The position numbers were made by a program, and so were the translations under genes. From Vulcanimicrobiota bacterium (GTDB taxonomy: Bacteria; Vulcanimicrobiota; JAJTBE01): DNA of 64,000 bases. The notes under the pieces are model-generated. The model worked only from the letters and a program-made list of their open reading frames with translations, was not told the DNA's origin and did no database searches. The stretch is taken from assembly GCA_021107945.1 (NCBI GenBank), contig JAIORV010000068.1, positions 1,222 through 65,221 of the forward strand. The letters run 5' to 3'. The number at the start of each line of letters is the position of its first letter. Within the stretch, counting starts at the first letter, position 1. Positions 53,626-58,835 of this stretch are shown piece after piece.

Positions 53626-55989
53626 TTAAGCCCTTCGCAAGATTCCCGTTTTGACCAGTATAAAATAAATAATCCACAGGATAACCGCCGTTCCTTCCAG
53701 GGCGGCAAGGAAGAAGCTGCATCCGGCTATTCCCAGTAACGGGACAAAGAAAGCTCCGATCAAAATCGCTCCAATACATCCTCCAAAATGATCTGCACTG
53801 TCTGTGAACGCCGCCGCTCTGCCGACTTCCGATCCCCACTCTTCCATTAGATACGCCGCCAGCGGAAAAATATGTCCCGAAAGCACTCCCACAATCATCA
53901 CTATAAGGAAAAAAAGAAACTGGTAAGAAGAGGGAAGTTTGCCCAGGAATCCCAGGATAAACGGAAGAGATAAGCCAAGAATGACGATAAGAATCAAAAC
54001 GCCCATAAAGAGCGGCATTACGGAGTCTCCCCCGGATTGCGGAATATTATCAACTTCCTCTTTCAGATCTTTTATTTTCTTCTTTATAATGCGATGAACC
54101 GAGCTTCCACCGAGAAAAAGCCCCAGCATAAAGAGCGCGATGAGGAAGCCTATCTTTTCGAAAAGGTATCCGTATAGACTCTGGTATGAATAACTCAGTA
54201 AAACTGTGAATCCCATGGCACATAATCCTGTTGCAAAAACCGAGAAAAGAGAGCAAAATTTAGCAGATCTTGCTTTACCGGGTCGAATAATTAATGAGCT
54301 TAATAAATATAAAACCACAATTGCAATCAGAATGGATATCCAGAAAACAGTCCCCTTTTTTTCCATAAAGGATATTACTCCCGCAAGCCTGGAACTTGAG
54401 TATTTATCCCATAATTTGAGATTATGGAGGTAAGCTACGGGAGATAGATCAGTATTTATGCGGCCTTTTATATTCTCCCGGTATATTTGCTTTTTGAATT
54501 TCACTCTCTCGGGCTCGTAGATAGTTTCAAATATATAAGGGGTGAAAACTGTGTCGGAAATATTCCTCTCCTGGAATCTTTTGAATAGCACATTATAATC
54601 ATCGCTTGAGGCGGATTTGTCAAACGATGCAAAGAAATGGGTGTGTGTTCCCGGGGACATTGATATATAAGGGAATACTTTATTAACAGTCCTGTAAATC
54701 GTTGTATTGTAATCCGCTATCTGGCTTCCTTTTCCCAGAAAATTCTCCGAGGATGTGATATTAAGCGCAACAACCGCCCCGGGTTTCATTATTCTCAAAA
54801 TCTCCTGAAAAAATTCCAGTGTATAATATCTGTTTATAAATGCCGTTGAGGGATCCGGCATATTAAGAAAAATAAGATCATATTTATTTTTGGTGTTTTT
54901 CACAAAAAGTCTTCCGTCAGAAACGGCATGCTTTACTCTCGGGTTTTGCAGTATCTTTTTCTCTTTCTTTGATAAAACAGGCTCCATCATTTCATAAAGG
55001 GAAGGATCCAGATATACCATGGTGACCGATTCCACGGGCTGTTTCAATGTTTCCTTGATAAATCCCGGTGTTACCTCTCCGATTATGAGAATATTTTTGG
55101 GGGACGGATGTTGTGTGAGTATATGATGCGCCGCCGTTGCATCATCATATTCCACAGGAAACGAAAATCCATAGATCCCGTTAAAAAAGACGTTGTACTG
55201 ATCTTCCTGTTTCGTAAGTGCAAGATTCTGGTATGGAGAATCCCGGCTGTCAAGCAGGGGCATATCTTTTATAAGGGTTCTCCATCTTGCAAGAAGGGTT
55301 GTTCTGTCAATGTATGAGGCGGCAAATGGAGAAATAAGAGTAAAGAATAATACAAGAAAAATAGCTGCTCTTTTAATTTTACCAGCGTGAGACCTTGCCA
55401 AAATATGGTATGCGAAAATGACTCCCGAGAAAAGAATCAATATCAGCGAAGCAATAAACGGCGTTGAGAGAAAACGAATCAATAGGAAACTGAAAACCAC
55501 CCCGCCGGTGAGGGAGCCTAGAGATTCGGATATATATATCCTTGCAACGGCGGTCTTATCTCCAAGTATCCTGCATCCGACAGGGAATGTAAGCCCGATC
55601 AGAAAACCCGGTGGGAAGATGGCAATGAGGGAGATCCATACCATTGAAAGAAACGGCATAAACTGTCCGTACGGCGTGCCGGATAACGCTCTGCTCATTC
55701 TGATGAATGGTATGAGGGCGATTGGCAGGATGGAAAAAATGAAGGTGAGATTTAGAAAAAGTCTGTTATAATCCCTGATGCGATCTGCAATAAGAGGATA
55801 TACTATCGCCCCCGCCGTTATTGCGATCAGCCAGAAGAACAGTATGACCCCGAGTATAAGTTCATTGCCGTAGAAAATCACCAGGAACTCACGAAATAAT
55901 ATCGATTGACATATTGTCGAAGAGAGTCCCATGAGGAAGAATATCATCAATACCAGGATATGCTTTTTTAATGTTTCTTTATTCATCAA
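53626..55989 (-). CDS. membrane-embedded spermidine/spermine-synthase-like protein (MFS-like TM bundle plus aminopropyltransferase domain plus C-terminal TM segments)
   Basis: 787 aa; central domain ILIIGEVTPGFIKE ... YDLIFLNMPDP ... GAVVALN matches the spermidine synthase fold; flanked by ~12 TM helices. Confidence 0.7.
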   Translation of the reverse strand: MMNKETLKKHILVLMIFFLMGLSSTICQSILFREFLVIFYGNELILGVILFFWLIAITAGAIVYPLIADRIRDYNRLFLNLTFIFSILPIALIPFIRMSRALSGTPYGQFMPFLSMVWISLIAIFPPGFLIGLTFPVGCRILGDKTAVARIYISESLGSLTGGVVFSFLLIRFLSTPFIASLILILFSGVIFAYHILARSHAGKIKRAAIFLVLFFTLISPFAASYIDRTTLLARWRTLIKDMPLLDSRDSPYQNLALTKQEDQYNVFFNGIYGFSFPVEYDDATAAHHILTQHPSPKNILIIGEVTPGFIKETLKQPVESVTMVYLDPSLYEMMEPVLSKKEKKILQNPRVKHAVSDGRLFVKNTKNKYDLIFLNMPDPSTAFINRYYTLEFFQEILRIMKPGAVVALNITSSENFLGKGSQIADYNTTIYRTVNKVFPYISMSPGTHTHFFASFDKSASSDDYNVLFKRFQERNISDTVFTPYIFETIYEPERVKFKKQIYRENIKGRINTDLSPVAYLHNLKLWDKYSSSRLAGVISFMEKKGTVFWISILIAIVVLYLLSSLIIRPGKARSAKFCSLFSVFATGLCAMGFTVLLSYSYQSLYGYLFEKIGFLIALFMLGLFLGGSSVHRIIKKKIKDLKEEVDNIPQSGGDSVMPLFMGVLILIVILGLSLPFILGFLGKLPSSYQFLFFLIVMIVGVLSGHIFPLAAYLMEEWGSEVGRAAAFTDSADHFGGCIGAILIGAFFVPLLGIAGCSFFLAALEGTAVILWIIYFILVKTGILRRA

Positions 55990-56794: not shown

Positions 56795-57282
56795 TTATAA
56801 ATACAAACTTAAAATTCAACATGGGTAGTATTTAATGAAACCTGGAATCAATCCTTCAAAAGCCCAGGTCAGTAGTGTCCTTTGTCCAATCTTTCCGCAA
56901 ACAAAAAGGATACCTTATTTTATCAAGGTCAGCAAACCCAAAACCACTCTTTTACTTGGACAACATTGACTTTTTCTATTTACTTTTCAGATTTAACGCC
57001 CGTATCCTTATGTGTCTTTAATATATTTTTTTTCCTGGGGCTTATCAAAGACGTCTTTCCCAGTTCAGGCCTTTTTTCGTTTACGGCAACATCTTTCTCC
57101 AGATCCGATTTTTCAAAAAATAAATAGAAAAATACAAGGAGACCAAATAGAAAGAGCATGCTAATTAAGAAGAAAAACATTATCACTTTCACCATTTCAC
57201 CCTTCTATTTCTTTTTATACCCATTGTCAGAGGAAATAACCATTTCATGAAAAATTTATTTATATCTATTCAGACCTCCCAC

Positions 57283-57337
57283 AGCAGGAGAGCCTTCCAG
57301 GCTCGATTTTCGTGGCAGGATGCCACTCCTGCAAACA
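57283..57337. ncRNA. structured element, copy 2 (outer stem GCAGGAG/CTCCTGC; hairpins GAGCCT-TCC-AGGCTC and GTGGCA-GGA-TGCCAC)
   Basis: Compensatory changes relative to the copy at 38277-38333 preserve both helices. Confidence 0.45.
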
Positions 57338-57520
57338 ATACCACTAAATTAAGGCAGGAGTGACGCATCTTTAAAGCGGAATGGCATGAGAACATCGATA
57401 AAACCCATAGGGCATCTCACATTGTTATTATAATCCAGCGCCAAAACCCACATCACCCATGTGTTGACTCACTAATTCATGGGCATTGCCTATGGGAGGG
57501 ATTTCCCAACCCCGATAAAT

Positions 57521-57947
57521 TAGTGTCTGTCCCTAATTAACAAAATGGCGTCTGTCCCTGTCCCTATTAGTGAATTAATTAGGGACAGACACCAATTATT
57601 TTCCCCTCCGGATATGCCCACAGGTTTTGGGTAATATGATGTATAATGGGAAAAACCTATCGTTGCAATCCTTGTAATTCTTGTTAATAAAAATAGTGTC
57701 TGTCCCTAATTAACAAAATGGCGTCTGTCCCTGTCCCTATTAGTGAATTAATTAGGGACAGACACCAATTATTTTCCCCTCCGGATATGCCCACAGGTTT
57801 TGGGTAATATGATGTATAATGGGAAAAACCTATCGTCGCAATCCCTGCAATTCTTGTTAACAAAAATAGTGTCTGTCCCTAATTAACAAAATGGTGTCTG
57901 TCCCTGTCCCTGTCCCTGTTAATGAATTTATTAGGGACAGACACCAA
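57521..57947 (+). repeat. 173-bp tandem array, 2.5 units. Each unit has a perfect 18-bp inverted repeat GTGTCTGTCCCTAATTAA ... TTAATTAGGGACAGACAC (34-nt spacer carrying a third half-site) followed by an extended -10 element TGTATAAT
   Basis: Units start at 57521, 57694 and 57867; inter-unit segments ~97% identical; TGnTATAAT at 57640-57647 and 57813-57820. Confidence 0.85.
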
Positions 57948-58133
57948 TAGGGGGAACTGAACATTTACCTTCGAATTGGGTGTAAGATAAATATATGAAA
58001 ATACTTTTTGCAAGGAAGGATAAACGCGTACCTCTTAAAGAATAAAACTGCCTGTTGATTCTGTAAAACATATAATTCTATAATTCGGAAGTATTTAATA
58101 ACACTTTTAAAACCGCACCTGGAGAAAAATGTA

Positions 58134-58835
58134 ATGCAAAAGAATGCAATCGCAATATTGACTGTTATTTTCTATGTTTTTATTGGAGCAGGGCTTTCAT
58201 ACTCCGAGGCGGCACGAACAATCACAGATCGCAGCGACCCTTATTCCCCCAAGAGTTATGCAAATATCGACTTTGTAAAAAAATTCAATCAGGCAATACC
58301 GGGACTTGAAAATTTAGGTGAAAAAATAGATCAGGCACTTTTATACAGTGATGTAAAAATGCTGACGGAGTCCGCCGCTGTGTTGGGATATTGCGAGAAG
58401 CAATGGGAAGTAAAATCTTCCGGGATTACGGCGGACAAACTCATGGACATCGCCGGACAAATAGCGGATTACAGAAAATCACCCGATGAGTTGAAGGCTG
58501 TAATCAATACATACAATGAAAGATCCATTTCCGTCTATAACCCTGAGAAAGCAAAAAAATACGAAACAATTCTGCAAAATCTGAAAACCCATCCTGCCGG
58601 ACAAAATCAATGCGGCACGTTGTTTGTTCGTAACAATACCGGTAAAAACAACATACTGATATATGTGAATAAAATATATTTTGGCACTGTAAGGGCAGGC
58701 AGAAGTGTTAAGTTCAGTAATATTCCCACGGGTAAAATAGATCTATCGGCAAATGATGGGAAACATAGAAAATGGGGACCGAGAAAAGTATATTTATCAC
58801 GCAACATAATTTTTCGATGGGAATTGTATCTTTAA
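58134..58835 (+). CDS. secreted hypothetical protein
   Basis: 233 aa; signal peptide MQKNAIAILTVIFYVFIGAGLSYS. Confidence 0.5.
   Translation: MQKNAIAILTVIFYVFIGAGLSYSEAARTITDRSDPYSPKSYANIDFVKKFNQAIPGLENLGEKIDQALLYSDVKMLTESAAVLGYCEKQWEVKSSGITADKLMDIAGQIADYRKSPDELKAVINTYNERSISVYNPEKAKKYETILQNLKTHPAGQNQCGTLFVRNNTGKNNILIYVNKIYFGTVRAGRSVKFSNIPTGKIDLSANDGKHRKWGPRKVYLSRNIIFRWELYL

Follow-up and report, generated by a model that had tools for sequence, protein, structure and literature searches.

A 173-bp tandem array in the window, the 64-kb stretch of DNA that was analysed here, is in all likelihood a cluster of non-autonomous REP/REPIN-like mobile repeats, most likely a known kind of bacterial junk or commensal DNA rather than a new regulatory device. 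The basic sequence appears to be an arm of ~18-25 nt, TTAATTAGGGACAGACAC(Y)AWTT, which in other bacteria bounds, in inverted orientation, a single-copy gene for a RAYT-like Y1 (HUH) transposase. In the window, two putative units devoid of such a gene, each consisting of a left arm, a 103-nt linker and a right arm, alternate with a segment of 34-40 nt that contains a further degenerate arm. An earlier note on this DNA had offered three options, namely tandem sRNA genes, an operator array or a MITE satellite, and it is the last of these that is favoured here, albeit in the form of a REP-like family flanking RAYT-type Y1 transposase genes.

The array is wholly intergenic, and its tandem organisation from equivalent units with inverted arms is as the earlier note described it, Tandem Repeats Finder (TRF) giving 94% matches at the 173-bp period over 2.5 copies, with the same units and arms recovered by the repeat search (Table 1). 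It contains six outer arms, three inner arm-like copies and two linkers in the reading order R / L-linker-R / L-linker-R / L, such that the orientation of the six 18-nt arms alternates along the sequence, with GTGTCTGTCCCTAATTAA beginning at 57523, 57696 and 57869 and its reverse complement at 57575, 57748 and 57927. All nine occurrences of the sequence GTCTGTCCCT in the 64-kb window, where 0.07 would be expected, fall within the array. The arms lie as inverted pairs capable of hairpin formation, and the predicted arm-pair hairpins fold at ~-30 kcal/mol with z = -6.4 to -7.0. The segments of 34-40 nt that separate the arm-linker-arm blocks hold a further degenerate arm (TGGCGTCTGTCCCT...).

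Some details of the earlier description required adjustment. The proposed three copies of paired 18-nt arms around a 34-nt spacer are perfect in copies 1 and 2, but copy 3 has a spacer of 40 nt with an extra TGTCCC and a right arm matching at 17/18 positions (TTTATTAG...); in the inner arm of this last copy a (CTGTCC)n microsatellite is expanded (TRF period 6 at 57898-57919). Likewise, AATTATTTT follows the inverted repeat in copies 1 and 2 as had been stated, but not in copy 3, where CAATAGGGGG comes next. The linkers, for which a length of 97 nt had been given, measure 103 nt and are indeed near-identical, differing from each other at 4 of the 103 positions, and both contain the extended -10-like box TGTATAAT that had been recognised in them. 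The dismissal of a CRISPR was correct, since both types of inter-arm segment are themselves repeats and there are no unique spacers.

Table 1. Features of the tandem array and of its downstream context (positions in the window)
Feature	Position	Strand	Basis and remarks
Whole tandem array	57517..57948	.	173-bp period, 2.5 units (Tandem Repeats Finder, repeat search)
Arm R1, GTGTCTGTCCCTAATTAA	57523..57540	+	'right-end' type; outward reading GACAC-TAATTT; typed against RAYT flanks
Inner degenerate arm copy 1, TGGCGTCTGTCCCT+GTCCCT	57546..57565	+	inverted repeats I14, I16; alternative pairing partner for arm L1
Arm L1, TTAATTAGGGACAGACAC	57575..57592	+	'left-end' type; followed by CAATTATTTTCC, as upstream of the L106 RAYT gene
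Putative miniature unit 1 (arm L1, 103-nt linker, arm R2)	57575..57713	+	compared with the RAYT flanks of L106, L124, L126, L131 and L132
TGTATAAT, extended -10-like box, linker 1	57640..57647	+	sequence; without -35 partner
Arm R2, GTGTCTGTCCCTAATTAA	57696..57713	+	AAAAATA directly before
Inner degenerate arm copy 2	57719..57738	+	sequence, repeat search
Arm L2, TTAATTAGGGACAGACAC	57748..57765	+	sequence, repeat search
Putative miniature unit 2 (arm L2, linker 2, arm R3)	57748..57886	+	linker 2 differs from linker 1 at 4/103 positions
TGTATAAT box, linker 2	57813..57820	+	sequence
Arm R3, GTGTCTGTCCCTAATTAA	57869..57886	+	sequence, repeat search
Inner arm copy 3, TGGTGTCTGTCCCT with two extra GTCCCT	57892..57917	+	perfect 14-nt inverted repeat with arm L3 (I18)
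Arm L3, TTTATTAGGGACAGACAC (17/18)	57927..57944	+	followed by CAATAGGGGG, without T-run
Downstream 233-aa gene	58134..58835	+	first of a same-strand run continuing with Clp_N, whiA, gap, pgk; context only
Best sigma-70-like promoter for the downstream gene, TTGATT-18-TATAAT	58055..58084	+	outside and downstream of the array; context, not part of the element

One question then is whether the arms occur outside the array. A scan of species-representative genomes with the pattern GTCTGTCCCT-N20-50-AGGGACAGAC returned 86 stretches (L004-L089) from many phyla, including Treponema and other spirochaetes, Prevotella, Caulobacter, Terriglobia, Lentibacillus, Pseudomonadales and others, and several of these genomes hold multiple copies or tandem arrays. 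The recurrence of a 10-mer across phyla was judged against chance by the composition of its flanks and by RAYT adjacency. The complementarity of the arms runs past the 10-mer in almost all 86 stretches, and the 10-mer is preceded by G in 72% and by C in 2.5% of the genome-scan loci, which together argue for real repeat families with a common core and not for chance. The exact 18-mer arm (TTAATTAGGGACAGACAC or its reverse complement) is present in 31 unrelated metagenome stretches ranging in GC content from 28 to 59%, with one to three copies on each contig. The position just outside the 18-mer pattern is a pyrimidine in 47/47 distinct arms and is followed by A-W-T-T, and we therefore regard the metagenome arms as homologous rather than coincidental. 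They are typically arranged as TTAA-TTAGGGACAGACAC-(17 to 80 nt, variable)-GTGTCTGTCCCTAA-TTAA, often only a few bases away from a start codon; 9 of the 31 metagenome loci have them in short units with divergent arms, TTAGGGACAGACAC-N17-80-GTGTCTGTCCCTAA, abutting gene starts or a tRNA gene, and the interiors of the units are wholly different from locus to locus. The earlier note had taken dispersal of the same inverted repeat with target-site duplications, together with a lack of transcripts, as the mark of a MITE without a regulatory role. The repeat is dispersed across genomes; within its own genome, the array apart, no further copy of the arm was found in the 64-kb window and 10 kb beyond (~74 kb).

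With respect to tRNA genes, the TTAA of the arm is followed at once by the first base of the tRNA at two of the loci (L111 4112-4260 and L121), and at a third (L126 3086-3200) the right arm of the RAYT is followed by tRNA-like sequence. The arm also resembles the promoters of phages K11 and SP6. A promoter for a phage-type RNA polymerase was rejected on the grounds that the arms are inverted pairs, flank a transposase and abut the tRNA 5' end, and that no viral contig matched the arm.

The identity of the family is indicated by what the arms enclose in other genomes. At locus L106 inverted arms surround a 228-aa ORF, which matches the Pfam family Y1_Tnp (PF01797, IS200-like) at 5e-16 with 59 bits against a cut-off of 23, and which among NCBIfam models scores highest with NF047646 ('REP-associated tyrosine transposase'), reaching 76.4 bits where the cut-off is 80, the IS200 model giving 27.9 bits. 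The protein contains an HUH motif (PNHVHF; HVH) and a C-terminal Tyr helix (RYVENNP), and its matches among PDB structures, IS200 TnpA (2ec2) and E. coli TnpA-REP (4er8), are both weak and distant. It has more than 7,800 homologues at E < 1e-10, the named ones belonging to Omnitrophota, Scalindua, Auribacterota, Syntrophales and others. Further contigs (L124, L126, L131, L132, L128 and L130) were picked by protein similarity to L106 alone. In all four of those encoding proteins of 62-78% identity (L124, L126, L131 and L132), inverted GGGACAGACAC arms lie on both sides of the RAYT-like gene, the left arm ending ~15-45 nt short of the start codon and the right arm lying at the stop codon or a few nucleotides past it, whereas the homologues of 53-55% identity (L128 and L130) have TAGGGACAGCGCC arms instead. 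Over the range of 62-100% identity the exact arms thus flank 5/5 RAYT-like genes.

The same association emerges from the genome scan. Searches by tblastn with the L106 protein detected RAYT-like ORFs adjoining GTCTGTCCC repeats in 9 of the 86 genome loci (spirochaetes, Prevotella and others), and NF047646 is the best match in 9/10 RAYT-like ORFs at 61-79 bits, under its 80-bit cut-off, as compared with 20-28 bits for the IS200 model; a fragment of 110 aa at L084 reaches only 26 bits with NF047646. When the ORFs of the 86 genome loci (L004-L089) were clustered all against all, the RAYT-like family formed the third-largest cluster, and no recurrent neighbour family appeared beyond it and common housekeeping proteins. 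The gene order leuS-RAYT-comEA-comEC is found at L124, L131 and L132, and at L106, where the contig ends just past the RAYT, on the leuS side only; the RAYT-like proteins of these four loci are 75-100% identical, and this fixed position fits the vertical inheritance of a putatively domesticated transposase. An exception to the single copy is the Spirochaetes GWB1_27_13 genome with at least four RAYT-like copies. No RAYT gene of the array's own genome was found in the window or 10 kb beyond (~74 kb), and none was recognisable among the best 120 of the more than 7,800 homologues or among the named cluster members.

Upstream of the RAYT-like gene of L106 (3800-3860) the outer end of the arm is stuttered, reading TAATTAG, TAATTAGG, TAATTAGGGG and TAATTAGGAC before the full TAATTAGGGACAGACACC, as though this end had been copied in part several times. 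Similar stutters, TGTCCCTAATTAA, are present at L107.

The two blocks of the window correspond to the RAYT-bearing unit both in polarity and at their edges. The arm upstream of a RAYT always continues ...GACACCAAT, and the downstream arm, read outward, always ...GACACTATTT. The window linkers are bounded on the left by ...GACACCAATTATTTTCC and on the right by AAAAATAGTGTC..., the sequence upstream of the L106 RAYT is ...GACACCAATTTTATTTTCC, and the left edge of the window units, CAATTATTTTCC, matches CAATTTTATTTTCC of L106. Miniature unit 1 has the L-to-R polarity of the RAYT-bearing unit, with TTAA as the outermost four bases of each arm. Given this agreement of polarity and edge sequences (57575-57713 and 57748-57886), the two arm-linker-arm units look, as far as can be judged by sequence comparison, like RAYT units minus the gene, that is, like RAYT-less miniatures. 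Their mobilisation would presumably have depended on a RAYT in the source organism, the arms forming hairpins in single-stranded DNA that a tyrosine transposase would bind, cut and rejoin, an analogy drawn from work on the E. coli TnpA-REP and the IS200/IS605 transposases (PMC3479197). The suggestion in the earlier note that the array offers binding sites for an unknown protein would accordingly be retained only insofar as the arms are presumably recognised by a transposase; no support was found for a regulator dedicated to the downstream gene.

The presence of TTAA on both sides of many units, together with arms that act as terminal inverted repeats around variable interiors, is also what a classical TIR-type MITE would produce, if it duplicated a TTAA target and were moved by a DDE transposase, the Y1/RAYT association being coincidental. 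We consider this highly improbable, because TTAA is palindromic and itself part of the conserved arm, and so is indistinguishable from a target duplication, while the RAYT-flanking arms often lack it. Furthermore, a DDE transposase was never found between the arms, exact arms occur at all five RAYT-like genes in the range of 62-100% identity, and no other recurrent neighbour family came out of the ORF clustering of the 86 genome loci. On the same RAYT association we dropped Tn3-type ends and piggyBac-like TTAA ends as well as a CsrA-type GGA sponge RNA and a WhiA GACAC operator.

The genomic context of the array likewise bears on its interpretation. It sits in an intergenic region of 939 bp, from which the genes on either side diverge: on the minus-strand side a 71-aa ORF, a 260-aa ORF and a spermidine-synthase-like protein, and on the plus-strand side a 233-aa protein, a Clp_N protein, WhiA, GAPDH and PGK. 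The 233-aa protein matched no Pfam family, and its NCBI annotation is that of a MAG labelled Candidatus Eremiobacteraeota; its ATG lies 186 bp from the end of the array by our measurement, close to the 190 bp given previously. In a second assembly of the same species (L001) the intergenic region is identical save that exactly one 173-bp unit is absent, so that the comparison of unit copy number between assemblies, which the earlier note had proposed, did disclose a difference, for which collapse during short-read assembly could also be the cause. Two Logan contigs end at the last module of the array, as repeats would make expected. In the nearest relative found (L090/L091), whose neighbouring protein is 79% identical and whose gene order is kept, the intergenic region is 305 bp long and has no array; the sequence is conserved again from ~170 bp before the ATG onwards, in L090 over the region from ~57966 to the ATG. 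A relative at 70% likewise had no array in the 300 bp of sequence at hand. From the absence of the array in the nearest relative and the difference of one unit between assemblies it follows that the array is lineage-specific and apparently unstable in copy number, and as such it fits poorly with a conserved regulatory device.

The simplest history would be that a miniature element, or adjacent elements, landed in the divergent intergenic region, and that the repeated arms then allowed unequal recombination or slippage during replication, by which the block was amplified in tandem with a 173-bp period. Amplification of this sort subsequent to insertion would explain why the array varies in copy number and why it is absent from the nearest relative. 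In practical terms, the array would probably serve as a VNTR marker between strains of the source organism and is a cause of assembly breaks.

Several peculiarities of the surrounding sequence may be recorded here. At the equivalent intergenic place in L090 (4455-4470) there is a solitary TCTGTCCCT, which by its sequence may be a decayed single arm, in which case the site may have hosted an element before or may be a preferred target. The ~230 nt directly to the left of the array (57268-57500) are likewise missing from L090; within the window they include a terminator-like hairpin (57290-57304) with GATTTTCG directly after it and, near 57424-57433, a TTATTATAAT box. The stretch may have arisen by a second insertion or may encode a small transcript missing from the annotation. 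Further away on the minus strand (53626-55989) is encoded a 787-aa protein in which the spermidine/spermine synthase domain occupies only the middle (residues 287-446), the protein being exceptionally long for the family. In L090 an extra DUF7309/DUF6930 gene lies between the spermidine/spermine synthase-domain gene and a 257-aa gene.

The comparison with relatives is also pertinent to the notion of an operator array, in which the direct and inverted GTCTGTCCCT half-sites would be bound by a cellular transcription factor controlling the 58134-Clp_N-whiA operon or the divergent gene. WhiA itself would be one candidate, since the WhiA motif of Streptomyces is GACAC, a sequence that can be read within every arm, and nine half-sites are concentrated in 430 bp between divergent genes ~1.5 kb upstream of whiA. 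However, the relatives keep the operon but are without the array, and the conserved promoter region begins downstream of it. Again, the spacing of the arms at other loci, which ranges from 17 to ~100 nt, is a misfit for a dimeric operator, and identical arms are found at transposase genes and at unrelated genes in taxa many of which would not be expected to encode WhiA. Control by such a factor is thus very unlikely, and we found no evidence for the array as a regulator of the neighbouring genes; a dedicated regulatory role is probably absent.

The other regulatory option, that of tandem sRNA genes, supposes that TGTATAAT starts a transcript of ~125 nt which runs through the next hairpin and ends at the CAATTATTTT tract, yielding two near-identical sRNAs. 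This appears quite unlikely to us, even though the box is found in both linkers and the predicted transcript forms a strong hairpin (-34 kcal/mol, z = -5.2) with a U-rich tract after it. The box is without a -35 partner, a scan for promoters gave no complete sigma-70 site within the linkers, and the terminator scan called none of the hairpins of the array, the third of which lacks the U-tract. Moreover, the box is conserved only through duplication of the unit, the nearest relatives are without the array, and the arms of the hairpins are common to transposase flanks and to unrelated loci elsewhere, where the interiors are wholly different. There was no match to any Rfam family: with Rfam 15, the window gave zero matches at the gathering threshold, the best one below it being to a model of a plant miRNA that scored 27 bits where 84 are required, and a scan of 18 related loci at the gathering threshold gave nothing at the repeats. 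The cyanobacterial NsiR1 arrays of tandem sRNAs are similar in that each unit combines a -10-like box with a hairpin preceding a U-tract, but the window array differs from them in lacking both conservation among relatives and a match in Rfam, and in having arms in common with transposase flanks. An intrinsic terminator, consisting of a GC-rich stem, a loop of 3-8 nt and a T-run, was considered and rejected, as none was called in the array, where the loops are 21-40 nt long. A search of the literature by sequence string retrieved eukaryotic primers only.

A near-consensus sigma-70 promoter is situated between the left arm and the start codon of the RAYT-like genes of L128 (2440-2500) and L130 (2440-2500), with TTGACA-17-TAGAAT in L128. 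The unit thus has a promoter of its own, and the TGTATAAT of the window linker could be what is left of a promoter of this kind. An origin as a REP-type element could coexist with sRNA genes if the element had been exapted. A rather unlikely elaboration, in two separate parts, is accordingly that each TGTATAAT of exapted REP units drives an RNA of ~125 nt to the next arm hairpin, so constituting a young sRNA family of variable copy number, and that the TAGGGACAG core may mark a deep RAYT clade. This core is common to the flanks of the RAYT-like genes of Omnitrophota-type bacteria, spirochaetes and Prevotella, and also to similar repeats of Caulobacter and Terriglobia near which no RAYT was detected. 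Such a clade, if it were real, would have a DNA recognition sequence that is nearly fixed across phyla, unlike the known REPs, which are lineage-specific.

The preferred reading, that of a REP/REPIN-type cluster, can be set against the systems already described. Enterobacterial BIMEs consist of alternately oriented REPs with recurrent linker motifs, undergo tandem expansion and vary in copy number, and the window array is like them in all these respects. It is unlike them in its spacing, the linkers of BIMEs being shorter than 40 nt and some of them containing IHF sites, whereas one of the alternating spacers of the array is 103 nt long and contains the -10-like box. In P. fluorescens SBW25 ordered tandem clusters of REPINs including their flanks are reported as the commonest higher-order arrangement, with up to 4 REPINs and more than 700 bp (PMC3116915), and the repetition of a 173-bp element with its flanks 2.5 times as one unit is of the same kind. 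With the REP/REPIN-RAYT systems of E. coli and P. fluorescens SBW25 the family has in common short, extragenic, hairpin-forming inverted repeats, the occurrence of the same sequence in inverted orientation around a single-copy Y1 transposase gene (for the window family, in other genomes) and the location of the RAYT gene in a conserved neighbourhood, here leuS-RAYT-comEA-comEC at four loci; RAYTs in general are single-copy, REPIN-flanked and conserved in their placement (PMC5581495).

The differences are nonetheless substantial. The REPs of enterobacteria and Pseudomonas have a GTAG head and an imperfect palindrome, while the window arm has TTAG/ATAG as its head and is not self-complementary; among the relatives of the window family the GTAG head occurs only in Prevotella, and self-palindromic arms in Caulobacter and Prevotella. 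The loops and interiors of the window family are long, 17-103 nt, in contrast to those of REP/REPIN elements. Points that count against a REP assignment are thus that the 18-nt arm is not itself palindromic and bears the head TTAG/ATAG instead of GTAG, that the array lies between divergent genes whereas many REPs are located at 3' ends, that the RAYT-like proteins score 61-79 bits, just below the NCBIfam cut-off of 80, and that a high copy number in the same genome is a hallmark of REPs, the array being the sole cluster in ~74 kb, in which no RAYT gene was found either. The IS200/IS605 elements and their miniature derivatives (PATEs) are comparable in belonging to the Y1_Tnp fold family with HUH motif and Tyr helix and in the existence of short non-autonomous derivatives. 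Unlike the window family, however, IS200/IS605 elements are without terminal inverted repeats and have their own subterminal hairpin at each end, and the RAYT-like proteins score only 20-28 bits with the IS200 NCBIfam model.

For annotation, the analysis removes a false lead, in that the putative operator or sRNA array most likely consists of transposase-dependent repeats and should be annotated neither as a regulatory RNA nor as an operator. It also documents a REP-like family in little-studied uncultured lineages, namely the MAG labelled Eremiobacteraeota, Omnitrophota, Scalindua, Auribacterota and Syntrophales. The unusual architecture, with non-palindromic arms and long interiors, and the GGGACAG core near RAYT-like genes in several phyla could aid the study of substrate recognition by RAYTs.

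Tandem arrays built on the GTCTGTCCC core are also seen elsewhere: in Prevotella dentasini (L067 830-1335; 218-bp period, 3 copies), in another Prevotella (L018 6791-7002; 147 bp), in a Pseudomonadales MAG (L007 3632-3754; 65 bp) and at two intergenic sites of a Terriglobia MAG (L071 30-200 and 1290-1550; units of ~87 nt). In Caulobacter (L026, L043, L044, L061, L062 and L065) there is a REPIN-like family in which two self-palindromic REPs (GGGACTGACACC-NNN-GGTGTCTGTCCC) stand ~37 nt apart; these elements lie directly after stop codons and have their core in common with the window arms.
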